Positions 1,744 to 16,515 are shown, numbered from the stretch's first letter. The stretch: 64,000 bases of DNA from Syntrophorhabdaceae bacterium (GCA_963666485.2 CAXXUO010000002.1:224001-288000), one strand, 5' to 3'. Made by a program: numbers and translations. Notes: generated by a model from the letters alone, not told the origin.

Positions 1744-3138
1744 TTACGGCGGCGTGGCTTTGCTGCCGTCGAGCATCTGCAGGTTGTTCATGGCATGCTC
1801 GAGCCCGGGATCTATCTCGAGCGCGCGCAGATATGCCTCGCGGGCGTCGCCCTTACGGCCGGCAAGGTAATACGCGTATCCCAGGTTATTGTAGGCCCGC
1901 GCATTTGCAGGGGATTTCTTCACCGTATCTTCCCACAGGGCTGTTTCGCTTGAATACACGCGGTTCCGGGCAACGGTAAAAGAACCGAGAACGATCGAGA
2001 TACACACCAGGAATATCACAAAAAAGCGAAACCGCGGAAGTCTCCGGTAAAAAAATGACGTTATCGCAATTGCCGCTGCGAGGAACAATCCCCAGCTCGC
2101 GTGATAGAAATGCCGGTCGCTTATACTGTCGATACGCGGTATCAGGACCACCATGGCCATGGCAAGAAAGAACCAGCATATCCCGAAGGCGACATACGCC
2201 CTCTTCCGCACAATTCCCAGGAGGGTGATAACGGCAAGCACAACGACAGCCGCAGTCTGAAGGGAAAAAGCGGACGAGGTGAACAGTTCACCGGGGTCGA
2301 TATTGAGCCGGTTCGGCAGGAACAGGTGGAAGAGAAGCTCCCCGGCGGCCGTCGCCTGGCCGATGAGGTTCTCCCTGAACCCCCTTAACCCGAAACTGTA
2401 CATGAGAATGTAGCGGTACCGGGGATGGGCGAGGACCATGGCAATGATCCCCGCAAAAAGCGCCCAATGGACCCATTGCCGGGACAGCGTTTTCTTGAAG
2501 GGCCTTACATGACCCGTGCCCGCCTCGTACAGGACAAGGGCCAAGGGTAGGGTGATGGCGTATTCCTTGGTTGCGACCCCCATGAGGAACAGAAGCGGCG
2601 ACAGGGCATACAGCCAGATCTTTTTCCCTTCCCGCGAACCCTTCACGTAAGCGGCGATGCTCCCCAGGCAGAACATCGTCATCAAAGAAGCGCTGCGCCC
2701 GCTTATATATGTGACGGCTTCCGTCTGGATGGGGTGCAGGGCGAACAGAAGTGCTGTCAGGAGGGCTGCCGGGTATGCGCCGTTTTCGGGAAGGCCCGTT
2801 TTGCTTTCCTTCACAAAAGAGACTGTGAGGTTGTATACGAGAAGTACATTAATGAGATGGATGGCAAGGTTGAATACGTGAAATCCGAACACCCCCGCGG
2901 GCGATGTCCAGTTCAGGGTATACGTTAGCTTGAGCAAAGGCCGGATGCCGGGAACGAACTGTTTCCAGAAGGCAGGCCATGAATGTACGGCCGGGTTGAA
3001 CACGATGACGTTGTAGTCATCGAGCTGGAACACACCCCGGAATGAGTTGATATAGACGATAAGCGCCGCGCCGAGCGGTATCAACGCGTATAAAGCACGG
3101 CTCGCGTCGGGCCAGTTCTTATTTTCCGAAGAAACCAC
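1744..3138 (-). CDS. TMTC-like GT-C membrane glycosyltransferase (protein O-mannosyltransferase-like) with C-terminal TPR
   Basis: Multi-TM protein with a DD motif after TM1 (FQLDDYNVI), HPIQTEAVTYISGR motif and C-terminal TPR (ARAYNNLGYAYY...ALEIDP). Start uncertain: GTG 3138 or 3165. Confidence 0.8.
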   Translation of the reverse strand: MVSSENKNWPDASRALYALIPLGAALIVYINSFRGVFQLDDYNVIVFNPAVHSWPAFWKQFVPGIRPLLKLTYTLNWTSPAGVFGFHVFNLAIHLINVLLVYNLTVSFVKESKTGLPENGAYPAALLTALLFALHPIQTEAVTYISGRSASLMTMFCLGSIAAYVKGSREGKKIWLYALSPLLFLMGVATKEYAITLPLALVLYEAGTGHVRPFKKTLSRQWVHWALFAGIIAMVLAHPRYRYILMYSFGLRGFRENLIGQATAAGELLFHLFLPNRLNIDPGELFTSSAFSLQTAAVVVLAVITLLGIVRKRAYVAFGICWFFLAMAMVVLIPRIDSISDRHFYHASWGLFLAAAIAITSFFYRRLPRFRFFVIFLVCISIVLGSFTVARNRVYSSETALWEDTVKKSPANARAYNNLGYAYYLAGRKGDAREAYLRALEIDPGLEHAMNNLQMLDGSKATPP

Positions 3139-3388
3139 CAGCCTTCTTGAAAACGTCAACAACACCCGGTGCCGGGTTGGAAGGATTCACCGACGGAACA
3201 GGGACAGGTTGTGAATTGCCTGTCTGCCCTGTGTTCTGGCGCGACGTACCGCTTCTGCCTGACGAGCTGTCCTGCCCCCCGGAGCCCGGCAGCTGCAGGC
3301 CGGGTATGGTCTGGCTCCCGGCTTCGCATACCATGAACAAAAAGCACAGGCCGAGGATAATAAGGGAAATGATCTTGACAGTTTTCAC
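3119..3388 (-). CDS. small exported Ser/Gly/Pro/Thr-rich protein (89 aa)
   Basis: GTG start with GGAGG RBS, signal-peptide-like N-terminus, low-complexity body; sits between two co-directional genes. Confidence 0.7.
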   Translation of the reverse strand: MKTVKIISLIILGLCFLFMVCEAGSQTIPGLQLPGSGGQDSSSGRSGTSRQNTGQTGNSQPVPVPSVNPSNPAPGVVDVFKKAGGFFGK

Positions 3389-3404
3389 GGTGCCTCCTGC
3401 AGCA

Positions 3405-6308
3405 TTAACGGACCACGGCGATCGGGAAATCCTGGATCGTCTGCGGCTTTGCCGTTGTGGGCGTCTGCCTGCCCTGGGTTAACTCTTTTACTCTCTCGGA
3501 CAGGTAAAGGTCAAGCATATTGATGGTGACCCTGCCTTTCCCTGTCATGTCGGCCTTTCCGCCGAGACCGTCGATCAAGGCCCTCGTAAAAGCGCCGTTG
3601 TTCCACTTCTGGTCTTCGAGCGACTGCTGGCGCCCTGTCGACGATGTAAAAACGACAGCACCGTTCTCGGCACTGATCAGCTCGTTGACAATGCCGTCGA
3701 TGTTCGGCGCGATCGCCTTTGCCCCTCTTTTGCCGAGGACGTCGCCCGCATGGCAGGTATCCATGAAAACGATCACCTTGCCGGGAATCGATGCCACCGC
3801 GTCCTTGATATAGGTGAAAAGGACACTCGTCGACTCGAGCCGTGCCTTGTCAAAATCGGACGGTATGAAATAATACTGCCCCGAGCTGTTGTCCCCGTGT
3901 GACGACATAAATATCATGGCGACATCGTGCTGCGTCGCGGAGCGCTTGAGCCATTGCAGGCCATCAACGACATTTTCCCGGGTCGCCTGCGCATCCGTCA
4001 GGACCTTCGTCGAAACGTCGCGGTACAGCTTTCCTTTCTGGGCATTCATCGCGCCGGCGAAATCGATGGCATCTTTCGCGGCAAACTTCAGGTTGTTCTC
4101 GGGATGCTTCGTGTACCTGCTGACGCCGATGGCGAGAACGTACAGTTTCGGCTTGATCGTGAAGCCCTCGGCAGCCGGCTGCTGCGCGTTGGTCCTCATG
4201 ACCCGGACGGATGCGGCCTCGCTCGTCGTGTTCTTTGTCATCGCGATAACGCTTATCGTGTTCTGCGGCCCGTCGATCGCCACGTCGACAGTCCTCGCAA
4301 CCGATCCTTTGCCTGTCGACGGCCGTGTGCCTGCTCCCTCGAGGACGATGTCGCGCGCCTGCGGTATCGGGCGGCCGTCAACGAGGACCTTTATGCCGGT
4401 TACCGGCGCGCCGGACGGAGATTCCACGGAAAATTTTACAGGAACTGTATTCGCACCGACCCGGGCCCCGTCGGCGGGTGACGTTATGCGGACCACCGGC
4501 GGAAGGTTCCCGGCGATGGATGACTGTGCCGCCTGCTGACCGGATGCTGTGAGCGCCCCGCCTTCATCGTAGGTCGTCATGAGATTTGCCAGGACCTCGG
4601 GATGGTAATATGTTTTCCGGAACTGGGCGACGGGATAGAAGTACGCCTCCCGGTCCCAGCCGTTGTTGACATGCCAGCCAAGGATCGAATCAGCGCCGGG
4701 GCTCGCCGCGTAGTAACCGCGGGGCGTCCATGCCACCCAGGGTTTCCTCGGGCCGTCAAACCTGAGGACACGGAACATTGCAGCCAGTTGCGTCCCGTCG
4801 GATACCCGGTACCACCGTATCGTCCCGTCGTCATGGCCCACCACGAGCACCTTGCCGTTCTGCGAAACATTCGCGACCCACGGTACGGAGAAGGCACGTT
4901 TCTTCCATATGACTTTGCCGCTTGCGTCAAACCGGAAGATAGACCAGTTCGACCCGACGATAAAAGATTGCCCTCCCGGGACTATTACGGCGCTTCTCGC
5001 CATCTCATCCTTTCCAAGATCGATCTTCTGATCATTGAGCCTGAAGCCATCCCTGTCCCTGATGCCCGTCAATTTCATCCCGGGCGCAGAGCGGATGGGA
5101 TCGGCAAGTTCGGAATCACGCCCTGACGCGGCGTCAAAATCACCATCCACAAGGGAGAACCTGTACGTGATGGCCTGCTCTCTTCCGAAGACCAGGCCGA
5201 TCGCACTGCCGTCCCCGGAAACCCTGATGGTCGTGCTCCGATAATCAGTCCCCACATCGGACCTGGTGAACAGGCGCTTACCCTCCGGTGTGAATCCGCC
5301 GAGGATGGGGTCCGCCGTGGCATACACCACGTTCCCGCCGGGAATGGTCCGGGTGACAAGTATCGTATTGGCCCCGGACACCACCCACGTGACACTGCCC
5401 CTGCCCGCATCGTCAAAGACGCCTATGACGTATCTTCCGTCCCGGATATACGTGCCCCCGGCGATAAGCCTCTGACCGTCGGGCGACCATGCAACGGCTG
5501 CAAGGCCCTGATTTTTCTTGAGGCTGGAAAGATCGGGTGAATAGAGGAATTTCAGGTCGTCACCCGACAGGACCTCGATGTCCGGCGTGCCGGATATCCC
5601 TGCCGCAATGCGTTTGCCATCCGGAGAGAACCTGACCTGCGCGGCGTTGCCGGTACGCGTCCTGGCCCGCGCGATCTGTTTCAGGCCCCGGTCATACAGG
5701 ATCACATCCCCGTTTCCTGAAGAGGCTGCCCAGCGGCCTGACCGGTCACAATCGATGGTCCTGACAGCCCCGGAAAATTCCGGTGTTCGGGCGATACGCG
5801 CGAATGTGGCGGCATCCACCGTATGTATGCCGCCGGAGTTGAGGCCGACCGCCAGTATTTTCCCGTCGGACGAATACGCAAGATATCGCGGGCGGTCGGG
5901 AAACCCGTTCAATCGCTTCACCATCCTGCCTGACGCACGGTCGTAAAAATACAGGGAATAATCGTTCGGGGCAGAATTCGTAAAGCCGCCGAACGCGACC
6001 ACCTCTCCGTCAGGCGAGATCGCAGCCGCACTGATGACCCCCTGCGAGCCCTCGTCGATGGGGAAGCGCAGCGCTCTTACAAGTTTGCCGTCGGGCAGCG
6101 ACCAGATCCTCACCTGTTTTTCCGAAGCCGTTACCATGAACCTGCCGGCGGCGTCGATGGACATTGTATAGATCGCCGAATTATGCGTGCCCGTATCCAG
6201 TTGGATTATGGGGTTGGATGTCAGGGCGAGCCCCCCTGCCGGAACGATCAAAAGGAAGAGGGAAATCAATGCCGTCACGTGAAAAACCGCAACCGCCGTC
6301 TTGCGCAT
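3405..6308 (-). CDS. exported WD40 beta-propeller + Ig-like + caspase-family (peptidase C14) protein
   Basis: ATG 6308 with GGAGG RBS and signal peptide; WD40-like repeats; C14 domain LYVLAIGVSRY...AKDA, catalytic SSHG and MDTCHAG. Confidence 0.9.
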   Translation of the reverse strand: MRKTAVAVFHVTALISLFLLIVPAGGLALTSNPIIQLDTGTHNSAIYTMSIDAAGRFMVTASEKQVRIWSLPDGKLVRALRFPIDEGSQGVISAAAISPDGEVVAFGGFTNSAPNDYSLYFYDRASGRMVKRLNGFPDRPRYLAYSSDGKILAVGLNSGGIHTVDAATFARIARTPEFSGAVRTIDCDRSGRWAASSGNGDVILYDRGLKQIARARTRTGNAAQVRFSPDGKRIAAGISGTPDIEVLSGDDLKFLYSPDLSSLKKNQGLAAVAWSPDGQRLIAGGTYIRDGRYVIGVFDDAGRGSVTWVVSGANTILVTRTIPGGNVVYATADPILGGFTPEGKRLFTRSDVGTDYRSTTIRVSGDGSAIGLVFGREQAITYRFSLVDGDFDAASGRDSELADPIRSAPGMKLTGIRDRDGFRLNDQKIDLGKDEMARSAVIVPGGQSFIVGSNWSIFRFDASGKVIWKKRAFSVPWVANVSQNGKVLVVGHDDGTIRWYRVSDGTQLAAMFRVLRFDGPRKPWVAWTPRGYYAASPGADSILGWHVNNGWDREAYFYPVAQFRKTYYHPEVLANLMTTYDEGGALTASGQQAAQSSIAGNLPPVVRITSPADGARVGANTVPVKFSVESPSGAPVTGIKVLVDGRPIPQARDIVLEGAGTRPSTGKGSVARTVDVAIDGPQNTISVIAMTKNTTSEAASVRVMRTNAQQPAAEGFTIKPKLYVLAIGVSRYTKHPENNLKFAAKDAIDFAGAMNAQKGKLYRDVSTKVLTDAQATRENVVDGLQWLKRSATQHDVAMIFMSSHGDNSSGQYYFIPSDFDKARLESTSVLFTYIKDAVASIPGKVIVFMDTCHAGDVLGKRGAKAIAPNIDGIVNELISAENGAVVFTSSTGRQQSLEDQKWNNGAFTRALIDGLGGKADMTGKGRVTINMLDLYLSERVKELTQGRQTPTTAKPQTIQDFPIAVVR

Positions 6309-6348
6309 AATGCCTCCCTTGCTATTGCGAGATATGATCCACCACGGG

Positions 6349-9300
6349 TCAGCGGATGCGCTGCACCGCGTATGTCCGCGAATCACCGCCTTCCGTCGCG
6401 CGGACCGTGCATGAGAACTGGTTGCCGCTTCCGTCCATCACAAAACTGAAGGTCCCCGAGTTCTTCGCATCGCTTGCTTCGCGGAAAGTACCCTTCGCCG
6501 TGTTGCCGGCAATGGTGCCTTCGAGCGGCCCTCCGAGTGTTTCCGTCTGACGTGCACCCGATGACGTCTTGTACGGGACATTGACCGAAAAAGTACCCGT
6601 GATGCGCGTACCGCTCGATGTCAGGCTGAAGGTAATGACCTCACCCTCGCGGCCGGCTGAGCTCTTCCATGAACCCGAAAATGACACCGCAGCCGCAGGG
6701 CCGTGCGAGGTCTCCACCGGTTTCGCGGTATATACCCTTCCCGTCTGGGTGCCCGGCTTGCTGGCGGCATACGAGGCTTCCAGCTGTTTCACATAATTTG
6801 CCATCGCGGTGTCGTTCGGCGCATACCTCAGGTATTCCCTGTATGCGGCAATCGCCTCGGGGATCTTGTTCTGTTTTTGCAATTGCTCGCCCTGCTGGCG
6901 CAGCTGCATGGCGTGCTGTGAATTCTTCTGGTCGGCGGCATATTTCGCTTCCAGTGTTTTTATGTAATTTGCCATCGCGGTGTCGTTCGGTGCATATTTC
7001 AGGTATTCCTTATACTTCATCACCGCTTCGGGGATCTTGTTCTGCTTCTGGAAGGCCTCACCTTCGGAACGCAGCACCTTCGCACGGGCCTCAATGGCCC
7101 TGGCGTCCGCCTGTTTCTTCAATTCCGCCTCGAGCTGCCGTATATAATCCTGCAATTTCGGGTCGGGCTGGCACTTCAGGCTTTCACGATACTTATCGAT
7201 GGCATCGGCGTATCTCTTCTGCTGCGCGAGGGCGTCACCCTGCTGGCGCAGGGCCTGGCACGCCTGTTTCGCTGCCGCTTGTTTTTTCAGCGAATCATCG
7301 AGCTGGGCTGCATATGTTACGCGCTGTTTGTTCCCCGGAGCACAGGCGATGTTCTCTTTGAACTTCGCGAGCGCATCGGCATGCTTGCCTGCATTGTAAA
7401 GCGCCTGGCCTTCGGTCCATTTGGCCTCGCACTTACGGGCCGCATCATCTTTCTTCGCCTTTGCCTGCTGCAATTCATTAAGCTTCCCCTTGAGCTTGTT
7501 CCCGTGGATCTCCATGTCCCCGTTGCGAGGACGGATCTTGAGGCCTTCTTCGGCCGAGGCTATGCCTTTTTTGATCGTCGCCTCGTCGAGAGGCTGCGTC
7601 GTCGTGGCAAGCCCGGCGACGTACGCATAAAGCTCCTTGAACCTCTTATCTTTGAGGCCCGCGTCTTCCTTGAGCTTCGAGTATTTTGCGTAGTCAGGGT
7701 CTTTGATGTCCCCGTTGTCCCGCATGGCCTTGAGCCCCTGTTCATAACTCGTTGAGGCCGCCTCGAAATTATAGGAGCGGTAATACTGGTCCCCCGTATT
7801 GAAGAAGGATTGCGCGTACGCCTTCGCGTTGGCATTCTTTTGCTTTTTCTCCATCGCCGCGGCAAGCTCATTTATCTGTGCCCGCCTCGGATCGTCGGCC
7901 TTGAAGCGCGCGGCTTTGTCCTTGAGTTCCTTGACGACCGCCGCGATCGCGTTCGGGTCCGAGGGTACACCCCGCGCGAAATTGGCCTTCGCGGTCTCGT
8001 AATACTGCATCGCGTCGCGCTTCATTGCGAGCATCGTGTTTATCGTCCCGAGCGCGGCTTCGTAGTGCTTTTTATCCGCAGGGTTCAGTTCATATGTCAG
8101 GACCTGCTTGACGTGGACCTCGGCCTTTTCCCAGTCCTCCGCCTTGAACAGGCGCGTCCATTCCGCGTTGCTCTTCTGCGAGAAGTCGTTGTACCATGCG
8201 ATCCCTTTATTGAAATCCGCCGTCACGCGGGCCCACAACGGGTTGGTCGACGCCTGTCCCCCTGCCTGTTCGCGCAGGATGTCCTGTATCTCGAGCATCG
8301 CCTTTTGGGCCGACCATATCTTTTTCTGTGCTATAAATGCATCGAATTCTTTTGTTTTTGCCTCGACGCGCGGCCATGCATCGGCGTATTTCTTCGCCTC
8401 TTCGAGCTTCTTTTTCGCATCGGCATCCGCGGGGTTGAGCTTTACCGCCTGTTCAAGCCGTTTTATCGCTTCTTTATGATCTGCCTTATTGAGGGCGTCC
8501 CATCCCATCTTCTTGCAGTCCTGCGAAAATTGGTTAAGAACGGGTGCGGCCAGTTTCGGGTCCGTCTTTGCCGCGTCTTCGGCGGCAGCAATTGCCTCAT
8601 CGTATTTCTTCTGCGACCAGAGCTGCTTTGCGGAGTCGAGCTTTTTCTTCGCCTCATCCTTTTTCTTGCCCGTCGACACGTCGGACTGGGAGATGGTGAC
8701 GCTGAGCGACCCGGTGCCGCTGCCTAAGTCCGCTCCATCGGCCGACTTGACGGCGCACGTCATCGTGTACGAACCGGTCTTGCTGCATGTTACCCCGGTT
8801 TCCTTTGACGATGGTCCCGAGATGCTGCAGCCTTCGGGGGCTACGGTCCACTGATAACGGAGATTTTCTGTGGCCGGGGTCACGCTCGCCGCGAACTCGA
8901 CCCGCTGCCCTTCCGCTATCTGGCGGTCCGCCGATACCAGCCCGACGCCTTCCTTCCAGATCATCGGGGGCGGCCCGGCGATCTTCGGGCCTGTTACGGT
9001 AACGGATGGTTTCTTCGCAGTAACCGTGATCTTTTCAACACCGATCTCATCGCCGCCGTCCTTTGCCTTCGCGTGAGCGGTCACGGTGACGGGTTTGTCA
9101 TCTTTCGGTTTATAGGTGTATGTCTTCTGGTCCTGTGTCGCGGCACCCCCGCTCTGCGTGTTGCCGGCTGCCTCCCACCAGTATGAGACGGTCTGCTGGT
9201 CGAGTTTGGGCTGTTCCGTCAGCGTAATCTTCACCTCCTGCCCGACAAGCGGTTCAGCAGGCTCGGCCTTCAGGGTTATCCCGGGCTTCACGACCTGGAT

Positions 9301-12300
9301 CTGTATCTGCTCCGATTCGCCGACCGTCATCTTCCGGCCGTCCACATCACGCTGGACAACGACCCAGACAGGTGTTGTCCCCGGCTTCCGGAAAGACGCC
9401 GTATTGCGTGACTGGGAACCGCCTTTCGTTTCGTATGTCGGGTTCTTCGGGTCGCCGAAAACAGCGTCGGGGTTGCGCTCCCATACAAATGAGAACGAAC
9501 CGCCCGCCGGTTTGTCGCCGGAAAAGACCTCAGCGAGGAAAGTCGCCTTCCCGCCTATCGGGATGCTGTTCTCCTTCGGGCTCTCCTTGGTGATCTTGAC
9601 CTTCAGGCCCGTGCACTGGATAGCCAGGCTGGCGGCTGCGCTGTTGTCATCCTGGTCCGTCACCGTGACGCTTGCGGTGCATGTCTTGCATTCACGGGTG
9701 TTCAGTACTTTTGCACGGTCTTCCTTTGCATCCTGGGCGCACCCGCCCCAGGTGAATTTGTATCCGCCGGATCCCTCGCTGGCCTCGGCTACGAGGTCGA
9801 CGATATCGCCAAAATCGGCGGGGTTCTTCGATGCGGTAAGTTTGACCGTAAGAGGCTTCGTGTGTTTCTTGTTCTGGTCGCGCCTCATCTTGTCGGCGAG
9901 CGCCGGGTCGTAGGTCCCCTTTCCATAAGCCCCTTCCCAGCAAGTCTTTGCGCAGTCGTTCGGGGCGCCGAAGCTATGCCGTCTGGTCGCTCCAAAGGCA
10001 CCTGCCCCGCCAAAACACGGGCCGGAGCTTTTTGCCTCGGGTATCGATTTCTCTTCCGGGTCCCACCATACGCCGATGTGCCCCGCCCAGCCGCAGTAGC
10101 ACCGGCACAGGCAGTTATAGTAGCGTGCGTCGAGTTCCTCTTTCGTCGGCGGCGGGGTGCAGCCCTGTTCCAGGGCGGGTTTGCCCCTTTCGACACAGTC
10201 GTCAGGCTTTGTTGCCGTAACGGTCCGCGTCTGTTTCTTCGTTGCCCTGCTGCATTCACCCCATTCGGAATATTCGTAAGAGCACGTGGGCGCCTCTTTT
10301 TTCGTCGTAGCCGCCGTATCGGTCGAGGGCGTGTCCGGCTTCTTCACATCCTGGGTCTTGTCCGGCGGCAGTTCTACAACAACCGTTGCGCAGCCTCTTT
10401 GTAACGCCTTGCCCGACAACCCGTCCTCAAGTGCGACGACCGGCAGGCCTGTGACATACCAGTCGTACTGTTCGGTCACACAGACCTCATAGTTCCCCGG
10501 GGTATCGAGGGTCAGTTCCGCCGCGCCCCTGTATTCTTTCAGCATTTCCCTGCCGTTTAAGGTCCAGACAAACTGCCGGCCGGAGCCCGGTTTCGCATGG
10601 ACCCCGCCGAGGCATTTCGCATGCTCTTCGATGTCCTTCCTGATCGCGGCCGTGTCTTTGCTGTCCGTCGCCGAAAGCCGGACGGTCCCCTTTTCTTTGA
10701 GCCGGGCCGGGCTTGCCGTGACAGTGATGCCCTGTTCTTCAAGGGACTGCCGCAGGGCATCCGTCTCGTTGACCTTGAGCTGGCGGTTGTCGAGCCACGT
10801 CTTCACCACAGGCTGAAGGCATTTATTGATGAGGGCCTGCTCAACCCCTTCGTCATGTTTTGACTCATAATCGTCATAATGTTTTGACGCGGCCTTGGCA
10901 TGGCACTTCAGAAGGGAGATCAGGTACGGCGGTATGAGTTCCTGCCGGAATTTGTGCCCCATCTCCAGGCTTTTCCTTAAGCCCTGGGAATCATATATCC
11001 GGCATGCGAGGCTCCCGTCATCGACAAGCTGTTCACACGTCTTGTCCTCGATATTCTGCTCCCTGCCGGGGACCGTGTAGATGCCGGCGATGAGGTCCAT
11101 GCAGTCCTGCCTGCTGACGACCGCCCCGTACCCGTACTGGCTGATCCAGTCGACAAGCAATTCCCCCGTGGTCATAAATATGACGCTGAACAACTGGGCA
11201 TAACCGAAGGTCGGGTTGGCGAGGCCTGCAATATTTGCCGCAAGGCGTGCACTTGCCTTTGCCGCCCCTTCCTTTTCGATGGCAGCCGGGAACTCCTTGA
11301 GCTCCCAGAGCATTATGAGCGACATGAACCAGTTCTTGTACGCGAACCTTGCGCCGCTCTGCAAGGTAGCGAGAGCACTTCCTGAGGCCTCTTCAAGGTT
11401 TACACGTAAAGTGGCCCACTTTCCCTCACCTTCGAGTATCCCCTTGAGAAAAGCCCGGTACCGCGCGGAAGCCTTCGCCGCCATTGCCTCGAGTGCGGTG
11501 AACTCGACATTGGCCTTTTTCGTCACCTCCGAGCCGAGCTTGTTTGCTATCTGCCTCGATTTGGCCAGCATTGCCTTTGCATCGTCGGCGGATTCAAATG
11601 CGGCCTTTATCGCGTCATCGACCTGGCCCTCGAGGCTGTCGAGGTCTTTCACCACGGCGCCTTCGGGGGTGACCCCGCCGAGCTGGCGTGCACTCTTCAG
11701 CCGGTCTTTCGCCCGTTTCAGGTTCTTCTTCGCCGTGTCGAGCTTCCCTTCTTTCAGCGCCTTCTGGGCTTCATTCAGGCTGTATTCCGCCGACTGCACG
11801 TACCCTTTCAGGTTGGCCTCACCTACCTGTTCGGCCGTGTGCTCCGCTTCCGCCGTCGCCTTGTGCACAAGTTCATATGAATCCGAACCCTCTTTTGCGA
11901 CAAGCTCCGAGACCTGGACCCTCTTACCTGTCTCGTATCCCTGGCGGATGAACTTCGTGGGGGTTGTGTAAAGGCCCTCCGCCGCATCCTCACCCACCTC
12001 GAGGAGGTTCGGGTAATTCCCCATCTTGAGGAATTTGGCGATCGCCTCTTCATTCTGCTCGATCCCTTTCATGAGCTGGGCGGGCGGATAGAAATTGACC
12101 GATTTCAAAAGCAGCTGGATCTGTTCCGTGCTGTATCCCGCCTTCTGGGCCATAGCGAAGATCTTCTTCCTGAGCCGGCCCTGGAAGGCTTTCCAGACCT
12201 CTCGCGCCCGTTCAGGTGACACATCATCCAGCGAGATGAACAACCGGGCGTCATGGTCGGACGGGTCCGCAAGATTGAGAAGGGGGTTCCTGTAGCCTTC

Positions 12301-12483
12301 GCCGGATATCCAGGACCCCTGTTTGATGACCTTGAGGAATGGGTTGCCCATATCCAGGAGGACCCCGTCCATCGCCTGGCTGACAAGATGCGACGGCTCC
12401 ACGGAGACCGCGAAGAGCAAGGCCGGGAATACCAGGGAAAAGATAATGACAGCTGCCGTGGCCAGATGTTTCGGGGTGCGCAT
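6349..12483 (-). CDS. giant exported multidomain protein (2044 aa): Ig/PKD-like, TSP1-like, Cys-rich and TPR modules
   Basis: Long ORF with GGAGG RBS and signal peptide; beta-rich PKD-like repeats (YQWTVAP, YKFTWG); TPR repeats in the C-terminal third; YSEWGECS motif. Confidence 0.85.
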   Translation of the reverse strand: MRTPKHLATAAVIIFSLVFPALLFAVSVEPSHLVSQAMDGVLLDMGNPFLKVIKQGSWISGEGYRNPLLNLADPSDHDARLFISLDDVSPERAREVWKAFQGRLRKKIFAMAQKAGYSTEQIQLLLKSVNFYPPAQLMKGIEQNEEAIAKFLKMGNYPNLLEVGEDAAEGLYTTPTKFIRQGYETGKRVQVSELVAKEGSDSYELVHKATAEAEHTAEQVGEANLKGYVQSAEYSLNEAQKALKEGKLDTAKKNLKRAKDRLKSARQLGGVTPEGAVVKDLDSLEGQVDDAIKAAFESADDAKAMLAKSRQIANKLGSEVTKKANVEFTALEAMAAKASARYRAFLKGILEGEGKWATLRVNLEEASGSALATLQSGARFAYKNWFMSLIMLWELKEFPAAIEKEGAAKASARLAANIAGLANPTFGYAQLFSVIFMTTGELLVDWISQYGYGAVVSRQDCMDLIAGIYTVPGREQNIEDKTCEQLVDDGSLACRIYDSQGLRKSLEMGHKFRQELIPPYLISLLKCHAKAASKHYDDYESKHDEGVEQALINKCLQPVVKTWLDNRQLKVNETDALRQSLEEQGITVTASPARLKEKGTVRLSATDSKDTAAIRKDIEEHAKCLGGVHAKPGSGRQFVWTLNGREMLKEYRGAAELTLDTPGNYEVCVTEQYDWYVTGLPVVALEDGLSGKALQRGCATVVVELPPDKTQDVKKPDTPSTDTAATTKKEAPTCSYEYSEWGECSRATKKQTRTVTATKPDDCVERGKPALEQGCTPPPTKEELDARYYNCLCRCYCGWAGHIGVWWDPEEKSIPEAKSSGPCFGGAGAFGATRRHSFGAPNDCAKTCWEGAYGKGTYDPALADKMRRDQNKKHTKPLTVKLTASKNPADFGDIVDLVAEASEGSGGYKFTWGGCAQDAKEDRAKVLNTRECKTCTASVTVTDQDDNSAAASLAIQCTGLKVKITKESPKENSIPIGGKATFLAEVFSGDKPAGGSFSFVWERNPDAVFGDPKNPTYETKGGSQSRNTASFRKPGTTPVWVVVQRDVDGRKMTVGESEQIQIQVVKPGITLKAEPAEPLVGQEVKITLTEQPKLDQQTVSYWWEAAGNTQSGGAATQDQKTYTYKPKDDKPVTVTAHAKAKDGGDEIGVEKITVTAKKPSVTVTGPKIAGPPPMIWKEGVGLVSADRQIAEGQRVEFAASVTPATENLRYQWTVAPEGCSISGPSSKETGVTCSKTGSYTMTCAVKSADGADLGSGTGSLSVTISQSDVSTGKKKDEAKKKLDSAKQLWSQKKYDEAIAAAEDAAKTDPKLAAPVLNQFSQDCKKMGWDALNKADHKEAIKRLEQAVKLNPADADAKKKLEEAKKYADAWPRVEAKTKEFDAFIAQKKIWSAQKAMLEIQDILREQAGGQASTNPLWARVTADFNKGIAWYNDFSQKSNAEWTRLFKAEDWEKAEVHVKQVLTYELNPADKKHYEAALGTINTMLAMKRDAMQYYETAKANFARGVPSDPNAIAAVVKELKDKAARFKADDPRRAQINELAAAMEKKQKNANAKAYAQSFFNTGDQYYRSYNFEAASTSYEQGLKAMRDNGDIKDPDYAKYSKLKEDAGLKDKRFKELYAYVAGLATTTQPLDEATIKKGIASAEEGLKIRPRNGDMEIHGNKLKGKLNELQQAKAKKDDAARKCEAKWTEGQALYNAGKHADALAKFKENIACAPGNKQRVTYAAQLDDSLKKQAAAKQACQALRQQGDALAQQKRYADAIDKYRESLKCQPDPKLQDYIRQLEAELKKQADARAIEARAKVLRSEGEAFQKQNKIPEAVMKYKEYLKYAPNDTAMANYIKTLEAKYAADQKNSQHAMQLRQQGEQLQKQNKIPEAIAAYREYLRYAPNDTAMANYVKQLEASYAASKPGTQTGRVYTAKPVETSHGPAAAVSFSGSWKSSAGREGEVITFSLTSSGTRITGTFSVNVPYKTSSGARQTETLGGPLEGTIAGNTAKGTFREASDAKNSGTFSFVMDGSGNQFSCTVRATEGGDSRTYAVQRIR

Positions 12484-12580
12484 GCAATCCCTCCGGATAT
12501 TTGTTATAAGGGTATCAGGTCAATCCTGATGAAAAGATATGGGCGGCGAAGGCATCGATACATCCTCCGCCCCGATTAGC

Positions 12581-12609
12581 AATATATTAGTCGTACAATG
12601 TATTGTCAA
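12581..12609 (-). promoter_or_regulatory. sigma70-like promoter for the leftward operon (giant protein)
   Basis: TTGACA (12609-12604), 17 bp, TATATT (12586-12581); a GGGCGG/CCGCCC hairpin lies in the predicted leader (12541-12572). Confidence 0.6.
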
Positions 12610-12671
12610 CATATTTTAGCAATCCCGTTTTTCCTTGTTTTTAAAGGTATTTTCGGCACCTTTATCTCTCG

Positions 12672-12701
12672 TTGACAAAATTTTCAGCTCATGGTTATAC
12701 T
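12672..12701 (+). promoter_or_regulatory. sigma70-like promoter for the rightward operon
   Basis: TTGACA (12672-12677), 18 bp, TATACT (12696-12701). Confidence 0.6.
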
Positions 12702-12817
12702 ACGTTCAACAGGAATCTTTTTGGGGTGGACATTCCGCGTTTAATCTCGTTAGCGCATGTCCCGTTTTCACCAGGCATCAGAAGTTAAAAAACATTTATT
12801 TTTACATGGAGGTTGGT

Positions 12818-13678
12818 ATGAAAGCATTACCTTCAGTCATTGCAGTTGTCGTCCTTTCACTTTTCATTCTCGGCCTCGCGGGCGAAGCCCCGGCGGGACC
12901 ATCCGGTGCAAAAGCGATCTTTGACAGCGGTGAAGGGCCTGCAGTCCGGATGTCATCAGGCGGCGGGACCGCAAAACCGGCCACGCAGACGGCTTCAGCT
13001 CCTGCCAGAGAAAAATATGTCGGTGTATCCTATAAGCTTGTACTCCTGCGCGACAATGGCTCCTTTGACATTGTCAGCAAGGCGCGTACCTTCCGTACCG
13101 GCGAGAAGATAAAGCTCCTCGTCCGGACCAACAGGCCCGGCTACCTCACGATCATGAATATCGGTACGTCCGGCAACTCAACCGTCCTGTGCAGCGAGCA
13201 GGTAGAGCCCGGCGCAATGGTAGAGATCCCGAGAACGGGTAATTTCCGGTTCTCCGGCCCTGCGGGAACAGAAAAGCTTCTCGTCATGCTTTCGTCCCAG
13301 CCGAATCCCATGGGCGGACCTTCGTCATCGACGGTAGCATCCGCACCGCCCCCTCCTCCGGCTGATGCATCCTCCACGGCTGCACTTCCCCCGCCGCCTC
13401 CTCCGGGTTCGTCGGACGCGGCAAACGTGCCGCCTCCACCGCCTCCGAGCGGCGCGGTCATGACGGCGTCACTTGAGGGCTCCAAGGATATAACGCTCGA
13501 CAGCAACGGCACGAGTTATGGCGTCGTTAACCCGAAAAAAGGCTGGAAGCCCGAAGCACGCGGGAAAAAAGACATTATCATGGAATCGGCGGGTGGTGAG
13601 AATTTCGGCGTCGTGCCTGCATCATATGTGGCGGACGGCAGCATACTCACGCTCGAAATAAAGCTCAAACACAGATAA
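12818..13678 (+). CDS. exported DUF4384-like protein with Pro-rich linker
   Basis: ATG 12818 after GGAGG; signal peptide; FRTGEKIKLLVRTNRPGYLTIMNIGTSG...GPAGTEKLLVMLS resembles DUF4384; three poly-Pro tracts. Confidence 0.75.
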   Translation: MKALPSVIAVVVLSLFILGLAGEAPAGPSGAKAIFDSGEGPAVRMSSGGGTAKPATQTASAPAREKYVGVSYKLVLLRDNGSFDIVSKARTFRTGEKIKLLVRTNRPGYLTIMNIGTSGNSTVLCSEQVEPGAMVEIPRTGNFRFSGPAGTEKLLVMLSSQPNPMGGPSSSTVASAPPPPPADASSTAALPPPPPPGSSDAANVPPPPPPSGAVMTASLEGSKDITLDSNGTSYGVVNPKKGWKPEARGKKDIIMESAGGENFGVVPASYVADGSILTLEIKLKHR

Positions 13679-13687
13679 GGAGCGGCT

Positions 13688-14515
13688 ATGAAGAAAGAAA
13701 GTATCAGGTTTCTCATCATTGCTTTCATCGGGGTATTCTTCCTGTACTCGTGCGCTTCCATGCTGCCGAATCCCGATGAGATAAAAACGGAAGAAGACCG
13801 CATTCGGGCGAGAAATCAATGCATAGCTATGTATACAGCCGGTGGAGCCCTCGGCGGTGCCATTATCGGCGGACTGATCGGCGGCGATTGGAAGGGGGCC
13901 GGTATTGGTGCCGCGATCGGGGGCGGTATCGGTTTCGCATATGCCTGGGGTAAATGCCTTTCACTGTACTCCACCCTGAAAAGCACCCAGACGGCAGGTT
14001 ACCAGGAGACTGCGCAGAAGACCGGGTACAATCAGTCGCAGGGCGAAGTCGTCAAGATACAGAGGTTCAACATCACTCCGGTATCCGTCGCGCAAGGCGG
14101 CTCGGTTAAACTGAACGGCTCCTATTATGTCATGGCCCCTCCCGACCGGAAAGAGATCAAGGTGACGGAAACGCGGATCGTGAAGTATTTCGATCCTTCC
14201 AAGAAAGAGTTCGTCGATCTCGGACAGGTAGACCAGGAAGTGACCGCAGCACCGGGAACGCGGACTGCGGACGGCTCTTTCGACATTCCCAAGGATGTCC
14301 CGGAAGGCCGCTATAAAATCGCATTTGTCGTCAATGCAGAAGGCAAGTCGGACATGGTCGAGCGTGAGCTCACTGTCCGGAAAGGGACCGCGTATGTCCC
14401 CGGCTTTAACATGCAGGCCTTCGACCGGCCGGTTACGTACTCCGCCCAGCAGGTCATGATCGTTGAGGAGGTTTCCCTGCTCCACAGAACGGCAGGCGGG
14501 TCTGTCGTGAGGTAA
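13688..14515 (+). CDS. glycine-zipper lipoprotein with Ig-like C-terminal domain
   Basis: Lipobox-like LYSC; glycine zipper GGALGGAIIGGLIGG..GAGIGAAIGGGIG; AAGGAG RBS. Confidence 0.8.
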   Translation: MKKESIRFLIIAFIGVFFLYSCASMLPNPDEIKTEEDRIRARNQCIAMYTAGGALGGAIIGGLIGGDWKGAGIGAAIGGGIGFAYAWGKCLSLYSTLKSTQTAGYQETAQKTGYNQSQGEVVKIQRFNITPVSVAQGGSVKLNGSYYVMAPPDRKEIKVTETRIVKYFDPSKKEFVDLGQVDQEVTAAPGTRTADGSFDIPKDVPEGRYKIAFVVNAEGKSDMVERELTVRKGTAYVPGFNMQAFDRPVTYSAQQVMIVEEVSLLHRTAGGSVVR

Positions 14516-14520
14516 GAGAT

Positions 14521-15765
14521 ATGAAGCTTCTGAAGATCCTTTTTTGTGCTGCACTTTGCCTGGCCTTCCTTGCTGCCCCGGGCGGCAGGGTGTGTGCCCA
14601 GACATCGCCGGTTACAGACGGACATTTAAATGCCATCAACAACAGTTTCAAGCAGAACAGGGTAACGAACGGTTTCGCTGAACTCGACTCGTATGGCCGG
14701 GTCCAGCTTAAAGGCGGATACGAGGACGACAGGCAGGTTGACCTGGCCTTCTCGCTTGCCCAGCAGATCGTCGGTGTAAAATGGGTCTCCCCCGTCACCC
14801 CGGACAATATCAAGGTCAAGGAATGGGAGAAAAGGATCGGCGGTCTTTTCAGCCGGGCCCGCGTTATCAAGGAGGTTGGACCTGACTCGTCCGTGCCGGG
14901 TTCGGTGCGCAACCGGTACGCCCTGGTCGTCGGTGTCGGCCAGTTCAAGTACGGTATCCAGTCCCTGCAGTACACGGTGCGGGATGCCTCCAGTTTTTAC
15001 AGCTTTCTCGTGAATCCGCAGGGAGCGGGGTTTCCCCGCAACAACGTGTATTACCTGACCGACCAGACGGCAACCCGGGACAATATCGTGAAATACCTCA
15101 ATACCATCAAGTCCCAGGCGGGGCCGGACGACCTCGTGGTCATTTACATGTCGAGCCACGGGACGCCCCCCGATAAGTTTGGCGGTGTTCACATCGTTAC
15201 GTACGACACCGAGGTGAAACCGCGTGAGAAGGTCTGGCACACGGCTATCACGGAACAGATGCTCAAGGACTTTGTTGAGAATTTAAGGTCAAAGCGTCTT
15301 GTGATGATCCTCGATACGTGCTACAGCAACGGCGCCTACCGCTCCATACCCGGTTTTCTGCCGCCGGGCGGCAAATCCCTTGGCGCAGACGAAGATGAGG
15401 GATACGGCATATCCCGTGACTACGGAAAACGGCTTCTCGGGTCCAAGGACATCGTCCTCGATGACGAGCCGAAGAAAAAAAGCTCGGGCAAGAGCATAGA
15501 CAGCCAGGACGGGTACGGCAAGGTCCTCCTGTCTGCCAGTAGCGCCGGAGAAAAATCCTGGGAATCCGACAGTCTCAAGAACAGCGTCTTCACGTACTAT
15601 TTCGTCGACGGTTTAAAGCGGTATAACGGTTCCGTAAAAGATGCATTTACATATTCCAAGCCGCTTGTTTCCCAGAGGGTAAAACAGGAAAAGGGCGCCG
15701 ATATTTCGCAGACCCCGCAGGCGATGGCGACGAGCGACAACTGGAACATGCGCATTACGAAATAA
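14521..15765 (+). CDS. exported caspase-family (peptidase C14) protein with N-terminal BON-like domain
   Basis: Signal peptide; GRVQLKG...AQQIVGVKWV is BON-like; RYALVVGV...RDA, catalytic SSHG and LDTCYS. Confidence 0.9.
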   Translation: MKLLKILFCAALCLAFLAAPGGRVCAQTSPVTDGHLNAINNSFKQNRVTNGFAELDSYGRVQLKGGYEDDRQVDLAFSLAQQIVGVKWVSPVTPDNIKVKEWEKRIGGLFSRARVIKEVGPDSSVPGSVRNRYALVVGVGQFKYGIQSLQYTVRDASSFYSFLVNPQGAGFPRNNVYYLTDQTATRDNIVKYLNTIKSQAGPDDLVVIYMSSHGTPPDKFGGVHIVTYDTEVKPREKVWHTAITEQMLKDFVENLRSKRLVMILDTCYSNGAYRSIPGFLPPGGKSLGADEDEGYGISRDYGKRLLGSKDIVLDDEPKKKSSGKSIDSQDGYGKVLLSASSAGEKSWESDSLKNSVFTYYFVDGLKRYNGSVKDAFTYSKPLVSQRVKQEKGADISQTPQAMATSDNWNMRITK

Positions 15766-15800
15766 ATATGAACTTTTAAATAAAGAGGAGGGAACTATAG

Positions 15801-16451
15801 ATGAGGAAAATGGTATTCGTTGTGACGATAGCATTTCTGGTGTCTATCGGGTTGATGGGAACGGGCTGCGACAAGATGCCGTGGAACAAGCCGAAAGCGG
15901 AGCCTCCGCAGCAGGCAGCACCGCCGCCGCCTCCGCCGCCGCCTGCGCAGGAAGAGAAGAAAGCCGAGCCTGCGGCCGCTCCTGACAAGAAAGCAGCATC
16001 AGGCGAACCGAGTGAAGCCGCCAAGGCGAACCTGAAACAGGCAATGCAGTACATCAATACAGCGAAGAGTACCAAAACCAATCGCAAAGAGAACATAGAG
16101 AATGCAATAGCCGAATATACGAACGCGATCAATAAAGACCCGAATTATGCCGAGGCCTATGCAGGACGGGCCGGTGCATATATGCTGCAGGACAAGAACA
16201 ATAAAGCCCTCGATGACCTCAAGAAGGCAAAAGAGTTGAAACCTGACAGCGCGAGCATCCGTTACAACCTGGCATGCGTCCATTCATTGATGGGAAATAC
16301 CGACTATGGCCTCGATGAACTCGACGCAGCGCTTTCCAAGGGTTTCAATGACTACGACTCCCTGAGGAAGGACCCGGACATCAACAATCTCCGGAAAAAA
16401 GCGGAATTTCAGAAGATACTGGAAAAACACAAGGTGTTTATCACGAAGTAA
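15801..16451 (+). CDS. TPR lipoprotein with poly-Pro linker
   Basis: GTGC lipobox, PPPPPPP tract, TPRs (AIAEYTNAINKDPNYAEAY; RYNLACVHSL). Confidence 0.85.
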   Translation: MRKMVFVVTIAFLVSIGLMGTGCDKMPWNKPKAEPPQQAAPPPPPPPPAQEEKKAEPAAAPDKKAASGEPSEAAKANLKQAMQYINTAKSTKTNRKENIENAIAEYTNAINKDPNYAEAYAGRAGAYMLQDKNNKALDDLKKAKELKPDSASIRYNLACVHSLMGNTDYGLDELDAALSKGFNDYDSLRKDPDINNLRKKAEFQKILEKHKVFITK

Positions 16452-16472: not shown

Positions 16473-16515
16473 AAAAACCCTGCAGATACTATGTATTTGC
16501 AGGGTTTTCTTTTTT
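16473..16515 (+). terminator. intrinsic terminator closing the caspase operon
   Basis: AAAACCCTGCAGATAC-tat-GTATTTGCAGGGTTTT hairpin followed by a T tract. Confidence 0.8.

Follow-up and report, generated by a model that had tools for sequence, protein, structure and literature searches.

A conserved four-gene cassette encoding an exported metacaspase-like protease and a DUF4384 protein that repeats its linker motif

Introduction

The closest described relatives of the protease considered here are the type II metacaspases (AtMC4, AtMC9; MEROPS C14B). Sections of a clan CD review (PMC4357240) state that these enzymes conserve a basic activation residue directly before strand beta5, where a long insertion following the catalytic Cys ends; the same sections name Asp95 (in alpha1) and Asp211 (two residues before the Cys) among the S1 residues of TbMCA2. 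A second related group is that of the cyanobacterial orthocaspases, C14 proteins of the p20 type for which parts of another article (PMC7475262) list DUF4384 and WD40 among the accessory domains. Here we describe a locus of eight genes at 1744..16451 of a window (the whole stretch of DNA analysed, 64,000 nucleotides) from a Syntrophorhabdaceae bacterium, with the genes named A, S, B and C on the minus strand and D, E, F and G on the plus strand. Its main subject is F, an exported protein with a caspase-fold protease domain, together with its plus-strand neighbours.

As far as is known, characterised orthocaspases are cytoplasmic single proteins. B shares with the group a WD40 fusion, and D is a DUF4384 protein encoded by a separate gene; in contrast to the orthocaspases, the partner is thus split off, all products carry export signals, and two lipoproteins are added. 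F resembles the type II metacaspases in fold, catalytic dyad, acidic S1 residues and in a long linker with a basic residue before beta5, but is bacterial and exported, has an N-terminal BON-like domain, belongs to a conserved operon of exported partners and is only about 20% identical to the plant enzymes. That N-terminal domain is in turn like DolP and OsmY in its alpha-beta-beta-alpha-beta fold and by profile match; those proteins have two BON domains and no enzyme domain, whereas F has a single one fused to a protease.

In the LapG-LapA system, retention of a giant surface protein is controlled through its cleavage by a periplasmic cysteine protease whose gene lies nearby, and F together with the giant protein C would follow the same logic. 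LapG, however, is not a C14 protein, and Lap requires type I secretion and the cyclic di-GMP (c-di-GMP) receptor LapD, whereas the giant here has a Sec signal peptide; no LapG-family, LapD or type I secretion protein was present among the Pfam matches of the window genes or of the conserved neighbours. The known caspase-based defence systems (gasdermin, type III-E CRISPR, CHAT/NTPase) differ in that no gasdermin, CRISPR-Cas or NTPase partner is adjacent here. For the FtsZ-like 1 (FtsZl1) operons (Makarova and Koonin 2010), periplasmic and outer-membrane partners are noted in parts of the article (PMC2875224); the window has no Tubulin_2 gene, and that article does not use the word caspase.

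An earlier interpretation of the window, made from the DNA alone (the sequence-only reading), had stated that characterised caspase-fold proteases of bacteria are mostly cytoplasmic. This needs a qualifier: according to sections of a 2012 survey (PMC3501461), 98 of 671 prokaryotic metacaspases are membrane proteins (mostly by an N-terminal helix, possibly a signal peptide) and 30 are extracellular, and operons with OmpA or surface proteins were already noted there. No description of the present cassette, of a BON-caspase or of the common motif reported below was found in the literature, subscription journals and supplements not being covered. We know of no exported bacterial caspase homologue with a known substrate or role.

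Results

The rightward genes D-E-F-G form the conserved core of the locus. Their positions, and those of the motif shared by F and D, are as follows.

12818-13678, plus strand: D, exported DUF4384 protein (open reading frame (ORF) call, Pfam)
13688-14515, plus strand: E, glycine-zipper lipoprotein (ORF, lipobox, G-x-x-x-G run)
14521-15765, plus strand: F, exported BON-domain and C14 (metacaspase-like) protease, H213/C267 (Pfam, alignment, model)
15801-16451, plus strand: G, TPR lipoprotein (Pfam/NCBIfam TPR, G-C lipobox)
15439..15462, plus strand: linker motif of F, GSKDIVLD (K309-D310), between Cys267 and strand 333-338 (alignments, model)
13478..13501, plus strand: motif copy 1 of D, GSKDITLD (K223-D224) (30-sequence alignment)
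13562..13585, plus strand: motif copy 2 of D, GKKDIIME (K251-D252) (30-sequence alignment)

Orthologues of F were searched for in related genomes (n=101) and found in 21. Up to 20 kilobases (kb) were fetched around 20 loci and searched with all window proteins; D-E-F-G stood in the same order in each of the 20, which represent five genera. A wider scan, with a 10-row alignment of F as query against one genome per species and with genomes partly overlapping the first set, gave 63 loci from Desulfobacterota, Nitrospirota and Betaproteobacteria. The four genes were in order in 52 of these, 7 were cut at contig ends, and 4 differ (L056, L075, L077, L083). The sequence-only reading, which had grouped the four rightward genes, was right to treat them as a real unit. 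Taxon labels follow the submitters' titles, some 'Pseudomonadota' labels being legacy names; the carriers are labelled Syntrophorhabdus, Syntrophaceae, Syntrophus and Geobacter, Thermodesulfovibrionales, Nitrospiraceae and Dissulfurispiraceae within the Nitrospirota, and Rhodoferax, Ideonella and Burkholderiaceae within the Betaproteobacteria. All-against-all clustering of 708 called frames revealed no widely shared neighbour besides the giant and an antisense-frame artefact over D/E.

Between phyla, F is 55-70% identical. In a maximum-likelihood tree of F (50 rows; frames of 380-470 residues kept, truncated or mis-called rows left out) the phyla are interleaved, with at least five changes needed for Nitrospirota; a Geobacter/Syntrophus clade joins Nitrospirota (98/97), and a Betaproteobacteria clade joins another Nitrospirota clade (97/92). 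This pattern fits horizontal spread, although it is not proof of it.

F matches Peptidase_C14 in Pfam with an E-value of 1.1e-19, and weakly Peptidase_C13 (1.1e-4). Alignment with the yeast metacaspase Yca1 extends across SSHG (H213; SGHG in Yca1) and DTC (C267; DSCHSG in Yca1), and B likewise has SSHG and DTC, so the His-Gly and Asp-x-Cys motifs announced for both C14 proteins are in place. In 28 diverse full-length relatives of F, C267, D155 and D265 never vary, and 27 relatives retain H213. We take D155 and D265 to correspond to Asp95 and Asp211 of TbMCA2, a tentative mapping made via the Yca1 alignment; with it, F would have the acidic S1 pocket that goes with a basic P1 residue in metacaspase subfamily C14B.

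An AlphaFold model of F, computed from the 28-sequence alignment (predicted local distance difference test (pLDDT) 83), had its best fold matches in AtMC4 (6w8r; Z-score 21.9, root-mean-square deviation (rmsd) 2.2, 213 aligned) and AtMC9 (8a53; Z-score 21.2), followed by MALT1 (20.8) and GSU0716 of Geobacter (3bij; 20.6) and, lower, by an asparaginyl ligase (5h0i; 19.1), legumain (4aw9; 18.7) and a subunit of the glycosylphosphatidylinositol (GPI) transamidase (7w72_K; 17.4, 23% identity). The top match in Foldseek was 7qp0, a metacaspase of C. glabrata (E-value 7e-11). After the catalytic Cys, the model contains an insertion of about 60 residues (~270-332) with low pLDDT, predicted to be flexible, which together with its conserved basic residue appears to be the counterpart of the extended linker and activation residue of type II metacaspases. 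F resembles such an enzyme, yet it is not classed there, being bacterial and having a signal peptide and a BON-like domain. In remoter members of the family a lipobox takes the place of the Sec-type signal.

The N-terminal domain of F (28-100) has the topology alpha-beta-beta-alpha-beta in the model (helix 33-45, strands 51-55 and 61-67, helix 70-84, strand 97-99). It matches DolP (6xmv; Z-score 7.5, rmsd 2.4, 67 aligned) and OsmY (8rjx; Z-score 7.2, rmsd 3.3, 72 aligned) in fold, and a profile of 23 orthologues matches OsmY, on both of its BON domains, with an E-value of 4.8e-4. As the profile and fold methods agree, the domain was accepted as BON-like.

The motif G-x-K/R-D-I/L links F to D. 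In F, G307, K309 and D310 are the same in all 10 close relatives, and among the 28 diverse relatives [KR]-D-[ILM] is found at this linker site in 20, with Arg in 3 of them, while 3 more have the motif at an earlier linker site, where F of the window reads GGK285SL. D carries G-x-K-D-I/L-x-x-D/E twice in its C-terminal third; in the alignment of 30 D sequences, K223 and D224 are invariant and K251 and D252 are kept in at least 90%, and the mature N-terminus of D has the variant GAKAIFDS. In the genome as a whole, 8 instances of the strict motif were counted in 13,299 frames of 100 residues or more (2.84 million residues), of which D and F account for 3, compared with 0, 0, 1, 0 and 0 instances in residue shuffles; the motif having been defined after D and F were seen, this count indicates rarity only and is no independent test.

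Because of the Lys-to-Arg swaps at the motif, the acidic S1 pocket assigned to F and the precedent of the type II metacaspases, a Lys/Arg cleavage site is the most economical reading of the motif, and D, which bears the linker motif of F twice, is therefore a candidate substrate or decoy of F. A complex prediction of F 122-414 with D 28-286, using alignments made by us, scored 0.00 against a mark of 0.32 and counts neither way. The linker of B has conserved basic residues 8-13 positions past its Cys; the window sequence reads RGAKAI there and paralogues have RR or RK, which is suggestive at most.

D matches DUF4384 in Pfam (PF14326; E-value 9e-12, 45.4 bits versus a cut-off of 27) and consists of a signal peptide, the mature N-terminus GAKAIFDSGEG, an Ig-like beta-sandwich, a Pro-rich linker and a small C-terminal beta domain; the signal peptide and the near-invariant GAKAIFDSGEG are kept in orthologues, of which 30 were aligned. 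The model of D has a pLDDT of 69, exceeding 85 in the sandwich (67-159), and its fold matches are generic Ig-like ones (best Z-score 7.6); motif copy 1 precedes the C-terminal domain and lies where model confidence is low. According to part of a preprint (bioRxiv 10.1101/2022.08.17.504292), fusions of DUF4384 with protease domains are common. Since it is fused to caspase or protease domains elsewhere, D beside F looks like the split form of a known fusion. Matches to MG domains of alpha-2-macroglobulin were also obtained, at Z-scores of 5.8-6.5 for the model of D and as an MG2 match (E-value 0.019) for E; a 'bait protein' reading was set aside on account of the weakness of these matches.

In E, the G-x-x-x-G run is plain in the sequence and conserved, as is the lipobox; the glycine-zipper matches in Pfam lie below cut-off (3.5e-4 with 20.6 bits versus 28.9, and 7.6e-4 with 19.8 versus 24.2), as do those in NCBIfam. 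The lipobox residue Cys22 and two further cysteines that bracket the zipper hairpin, C45 and C90, do not vary across 17 sequences, with L-x-S-C kept, and the C-terminal domain is beta-rich. A profile of E against the PDB gave nothing below an E-value of 0.29, and no solved relative was found; any likeness to SlyB is a presumption, not a result. G is a short TPR lipoprotein (NCBIfam TPR_END_plus, 1e-20) with an x-G-C lipobox that is kept in orthologues.

The remaining features of the locus are listed below; all eight genes, both promoters and the terminator were located by ORF calls and a promoter/terminator scan where the sequence-only reading had placed them.

1744-3165, minus strand: A, multi-pass membrane protein with C-terminal TPR (ORF call, Pfam TPR, hydropathy)
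3119-3388, minus strand: S, exported Gly/Ser/Pro-rich protein of 89 residues (ORF call)
3405-6308, minus strand: B, exported WD40 propeller, Ig and C14 protein (ORF call, Pfam)
6349-12483, minus strand: C, secreted giant of 2044 residues (ORF call, Pfam)
12581-12609, minus strand: leftward promoter TTGACA-17-TATATT (11/12 matches; promoter scan)
12672-12701, plus strand: rightward promoter TTGACA-18-TATACT (11/12 matches; promoter scan)
16474-16508, plus strand: intrinsic terminator 3' of G (16-pair stem, 3-base loop, T-run)

The start of D was placed at the first Met preceding the signal-like segment (12818), and the ATG of B lies 26 codons inside a frame of 993 residues. Promoter-like sites were not above chance in the scanned 5 kb (5 found versus 3.5 +/- 2.2 expected). 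In an alignment of the C-D intergenic region from 11 genomes of the genus, with a mean column identity of 49%, both hexamer pairs are invariant or nearly so in 11/11, as is the GGAGG preceding D. The back-to-back promoters are genuinely supported because their hexamers are conserved islands in this alignment, and not by the site counts.

A single hydrophobic segment, located at the N-terminus, is present in each of S, B, C, D, E, F and G, and at least six are present in A. Export signals were judged from our own hydropathy rule and from conservation among orthologues, not with a trained predictor; they are kept among the orthologues of D, E, F and G. As each product has a single hydrophobic segment at its N-terminus, a lipobox or multiple membrane segments, the earlier assignment of all eight as signal-peptide, lipoprotein or membrane proteins stands, and with it the picture of an extracytoplasmic set in which caspase-fold enzymes with complete dyads are accompanied by BON and lipoprotein anchors and by TPR partners.

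The flanking genes are housekeeping genes (SulP/STAS transporter, GNAT acetyltransferase, SLT-LysM transglycosylase, Fmt) and syntenic within the genus; as the sequence-only reading had said, no gasdermin, CRISPR or sigma factor gene is adjacent to the locus. In the genome of the window (3.77 Mb, 10 contigs), B and F are the only C14 genes. PADLOC, applied to all eight proteins, returned only its generic 'caspase' model, for B and F, and no defence-family match for the other six; the NCBIfam model of the EACC1-associated caspase matches both C14 proteins below cut-off. Two weak matches in PHROGs, for E and G, were not taken as phage relatedness.

The giant C matches TPR_2 (5e-14) and PKD (1.4e-7) in Pfam and is composed of a signal peptide, an unannotated helical N-terminal part (~30-700), a Cys-rich segment, PKD/Ig domains, about 600 residues of TPR and a beta-rich C-terminus. 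Its central part (~700-1250, Cys-rich and PKD/Ig) is 51-68% identical across phyla, and the N-terminal part is often replaced. An Atlas search with residues 30-700 gave no usable match, and the sole match of whole C against PDB sequences was to TPR (E-value 0.056). The Cys-rich stretch at residues ~730-860 (window 9900-10300), among the best-conserved parts of the giant across phyla, matches the pleiotrophin/midkine C-terminal domain below cut-off (E-value 1.9e-4); we presume from its EWGEC... that it reads like a thrombospondin type 1 repeat.

Within the genus of the window, the giant is the divergent neighbour of D-E-F-G in 12 of 13 loci, the thirteenth locus being just 3.5 kb long. In other genera the divergent place lacks it, or there is a giant-like TPR protein upstream in the same orientation (L018, L020). 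For the 63 loci, relatives of the giant were scored on the non-TPR part of C within 7 kb of the cassette and found near 23, with varying position and orientation: divergent upstream in 10, all Syntrophorhabdus-type; immediately 3' of G and co-directional with it in 11 (L040, L049, L052, L055, L057, L062, L066, L068, L069, L073, L082); and upstream on the same strand in 2 (L063 and L079, weak). In several loci the giant frames exceed 1,800-2,000 residues and run off the locus end. Five genomes with D-E-F-G and no adjacent giant were checked; two carry a strong homologue at another place (59-60% identity, with frame lengths of 3,390 and 2,996 residues), a third gives weak matches, and the remaining two give none. 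As a partner of D-E-F-G the giant is frequent and movable but not obligate, because it is absent within 7 kb in 40/63 loci and was not found in 2 of the 5 genomes checked.

B matches WD40, Big_7 and Peptidase_C14 (2.8e-14) in Pfam, from which its caspase fold is assigned, and has its catalytic motifs SSHG at 3894-3905 and DTCH at 3750-3761. It stands beside the giant in 4 of the 11 genus genomes in which the region is visible (window, G007, G011, G016; 65-84% identity), each time between the giant and S/A. In G003 and G009, B is missing and C leads straight into A; in G018, G006 and G019, B is missing and C is followed by a gap and then S-A; in G004 and G013, both B and A are missing after C. 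The cross-phylum loci yielded no B orthologue, their only matches to B being ones that overlap the caspase domain of F; for the 10 Syntrophorhabdus-type loci, the 7-kb flank ends before the position of B is reached. G023, of another genus, has a C-B-A cluster (L092) on a different contig from its D-E-F-G, and B paralogues about 40% identical lie in other contexts, such as next to CHASE2-cyclase genes.

S is 80% identical in G007, with partial matches in other genomes of the genus, and has no family match in Pfam, NCBIfam, PADLOC or PHROGs. A had been described as a TMTC-like glycosyltransferase. Pfam matches its C-terminal TPR part only; the GT-C assignment is no more than a lead, provided by look-alike clusters in the Atlas named PMT/GT87 + TPR, and the membrane part (1-390) has no Pfam match at E-values up to 5. 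A is linked to the giant within Syntrophorhabdaceae and was not found in any of five genomes of other phyla that have D-E-F-G and the giant (G101-G105). B, S and A are lineage-specific additions on the side of the giant, outside the core, and the sequence-only reading went too far in treating the eight genes as one system. Nor is its two-protease cascade of B and F supported, because B is variable within the genus and no orthologue of it was seen in the cross-phylum loci, as far as their flanks extend.

Several further arrangements of these genes were observed. B paralogues of 30-40% identity stand beside membrane proteins whose CHASE2 domain is extracytoplasmic in four loci (L084:5526-7487, L087:5165-7024, L090:5830-7689, L093:10317-11750); three of the CHASE2 neighbours have an adenylate/guanylate cyclase domain and are divergent from the paralogue, and in L093 a CHASE2-only gene lies downstream on the same strand, so that an exported caspase may be paired with a CHASE2 receptor. 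In G054 (L091:10552-11517, 11561-12277), a B paralogue stands divergently to two genes, one for a DUF4384 protein that shares 30% identity with D and retains the motifs GAKALF and KDL, the other for a TPR protein 45% identical to G; E and F are absent. DUF4384 and TPR lipoproteins may be generic partners of exported caspases. Outside the window, the same genome as that of the window holds on contig C9 (76021-76434) a 146-residue fragment with one in-frame TGA that shares 54% identity with the C-terminal part of the B caspase domain and is probably a decayed copy. In G045 (L015:14465-15895), an A-like gene (49% identity, multi-pass and TPR) directly follows G with no giant nearby, so A can also join the D-E-F-G side.

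Three of the 63 loci, the most distant variants (L077:3884-6913, L078:8564-11542, L083:8170-11151), have F (32-48% identical) followed by a protein of about 1000 residues of the Tubulin_2 (FtsZ-like 1) family. This protein has no signal peptide, and the next gene encodes a G-like protein that starts with a Cys4 zinc ribbon and one transmembrane (TM) helix; such loci would link periplasmic D/E/F proteins to a cytoplasmic GTPase. Two cassettes appear to be decaying: in G085 (L020/L063) there are five stops in the N-terminal half of F and E is split, and in G013 (L013/L030) the giant is broken into several frames and D is in two pieces. L080, filed as a Candidatus Pacearchaeota archaeon, is a contig that starts inside an F orthologue (57% identity) and continues with a G-like gene; this archaeal bin may hold mis-binned bacterial DNA.

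Discussion

We favour a reading in which D-E-F-G is an envelope-anchored module around a Lys/Arg-specific metacaspase that is activated in its linker and acts first on D, with E and G as anchors and the giant as a frequent client or scaffold; we regard its chances as not quite even. The functional unit would be the rightward operon, a horizontally spread envelope cassette coupled to C in many lineages. F would be exported by its Sec signal, probably held at the membrane surface through its BON domain, and would act as a Lys/Arg-specific, metacaspase-like cysteine protease, with K309 in the G-x-K/R-D-I/L motif of the p20-p10 linker as the putative site of autoprocessing or activation. D would be its first substrate, or a decoy or regulator occupying the active site; the glycine-zipper protein E and the TPR protein G may anchor and scaffold the F-D pair at the membrane; and the giant could be cargo, client or sensing scaffold, the physiological output being its processing or release.

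Several points weigh against this reading. The motif copies of D sit in a tandem repeat of about 28 residues (KDI..S.G...GVV), copy 2 is partly predicted as a beta-strand (254-258) within the small C-terminal domain, and the motif, chosen with D and F already in view, could be a structural or docking element and not a scissile site. F had been called a BON-caspase, which the fold matches and the OsmY profile bear out and the Pfam model does not: residues 1-140 have no match to PF04972 at E-values up to 5, and the evidence for a BON domain is modest (Z-scores below 8, E-value 4.8e-4). Asp at position +2 of a lipoprotein means inner-membrane retention in E. coli, and G has Asp at +2 in many orthologues. 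The home-made rule behind the export signals, the many loci with no giant within reach and the two genomes without any giant have to be counted here as well.

If the motif is taken as structural, then D, E, F and G could form an envelope complex in which K-D-I is a strand-docking element, for instance for the TPR groove of G, and in which proteolysis is marginal. TPR proteins do bind short extended peptides, the motif lies in a repeated unit that is partly strand, and one family member, P0147, has Tyr instead of the catalytic His; but the Cys and both S1 Asp residues are invariant, the His is lost in a single sequence of the 28, and the Lys-to-Arg swaps are what a P1 residue would show, so we consider such a complex quite unlikely. 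That F instead works as a transpeptidase, in the manner of legumain-type ligases or the GPI transamidase, and attaches the giant or D to a lipoprotein-held envelope component, is the least probable of the readings weighed. The asparaginyl ligase, legumain and transamidase structures do align with the model, Peptidase_C13 is weakly matched, and the giant has a distinct beta-rich C-terminal segment; metacaspases nevertheless score higher (Z-scores 21-22), acidic S1 residues suit Lys/Arg and not Asn, and no conserved sorting motif could be recognised at the C-terminus of the giant, which is also absent from many loci.

A role in defence or programmed death, with the giant or other partners sensing phage, predator or envelope damage and F destroying envelope proteins, would agree with the action of caspase-fold proteases in known bacterial defence systems, with the PADLOC and EACC1-type matches of B and F, and with a patchy cross-phylum spread that suggests transfer and a variable large partner. 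Such a role is rather unlikely, as the remaining six proteins match no defence-family model, the syntenic housekeeping flanks do not make a defence island, and the known caspase-based systems work in the cytoplasm and depend on an NTPase, CRISPR or gasdermin partner, none of which is present. A single periplasmic zymogen cascade of all eight genes, in which one of the proteases B and F activates the other and E or C is set free as a putative membrane-active effector, can draw on the divergent promoter region that both C14 genes share and that is conserved in the genus, on the dyads and the basic residues past the catalytic Cys in both, and on the joint occurrence of C, B and A in another genus (G023, L092). 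We hold it to be very unlikely all the same: B accompanies the giant in a minority of the genus genomes, the cross-phylum matches to B are to the caspase domain of F, C-B-A and D-E-F-G lie on different contigs in G023, and B paralogues have other partners, such as the CHASE2-cyclase.

The favoured reading, of a linker-activated module acting first on D, can be extended to a switch in which a DUF4384 decoy with copies of the activation site restrains a BON-tethered metacaspase that, once released, processes very large secreted proteins; the switch would have been exchanged across phyla, and its remote variants would signal across the inner membrane, via the protein with zinc ribbon, TM helix and TPR, to a cytoplasmic FtsZ-like GTPase. 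This extension is speculative and, taken as a whole, unlikely. If true, the D-E-F-G switch would be a new kind of trans-envelope caspase signalling system.

Caspase homologues are abundant in bacteria, and the cassette provides a conserved and testable pair of a protease and a motif-bearing neighbour, with defined targets for point mutation (C267 and K309 of F; K223/K251 of D) and with versions in relatives of Geobacter, Rhodoferax and Ideonella that are perhaps more tractable than Syntrophorhabdus. Should the motif prove to be a cleavage site, this group of enzymes would have its first recognition rule, and substrates could be predicted across many genomes.

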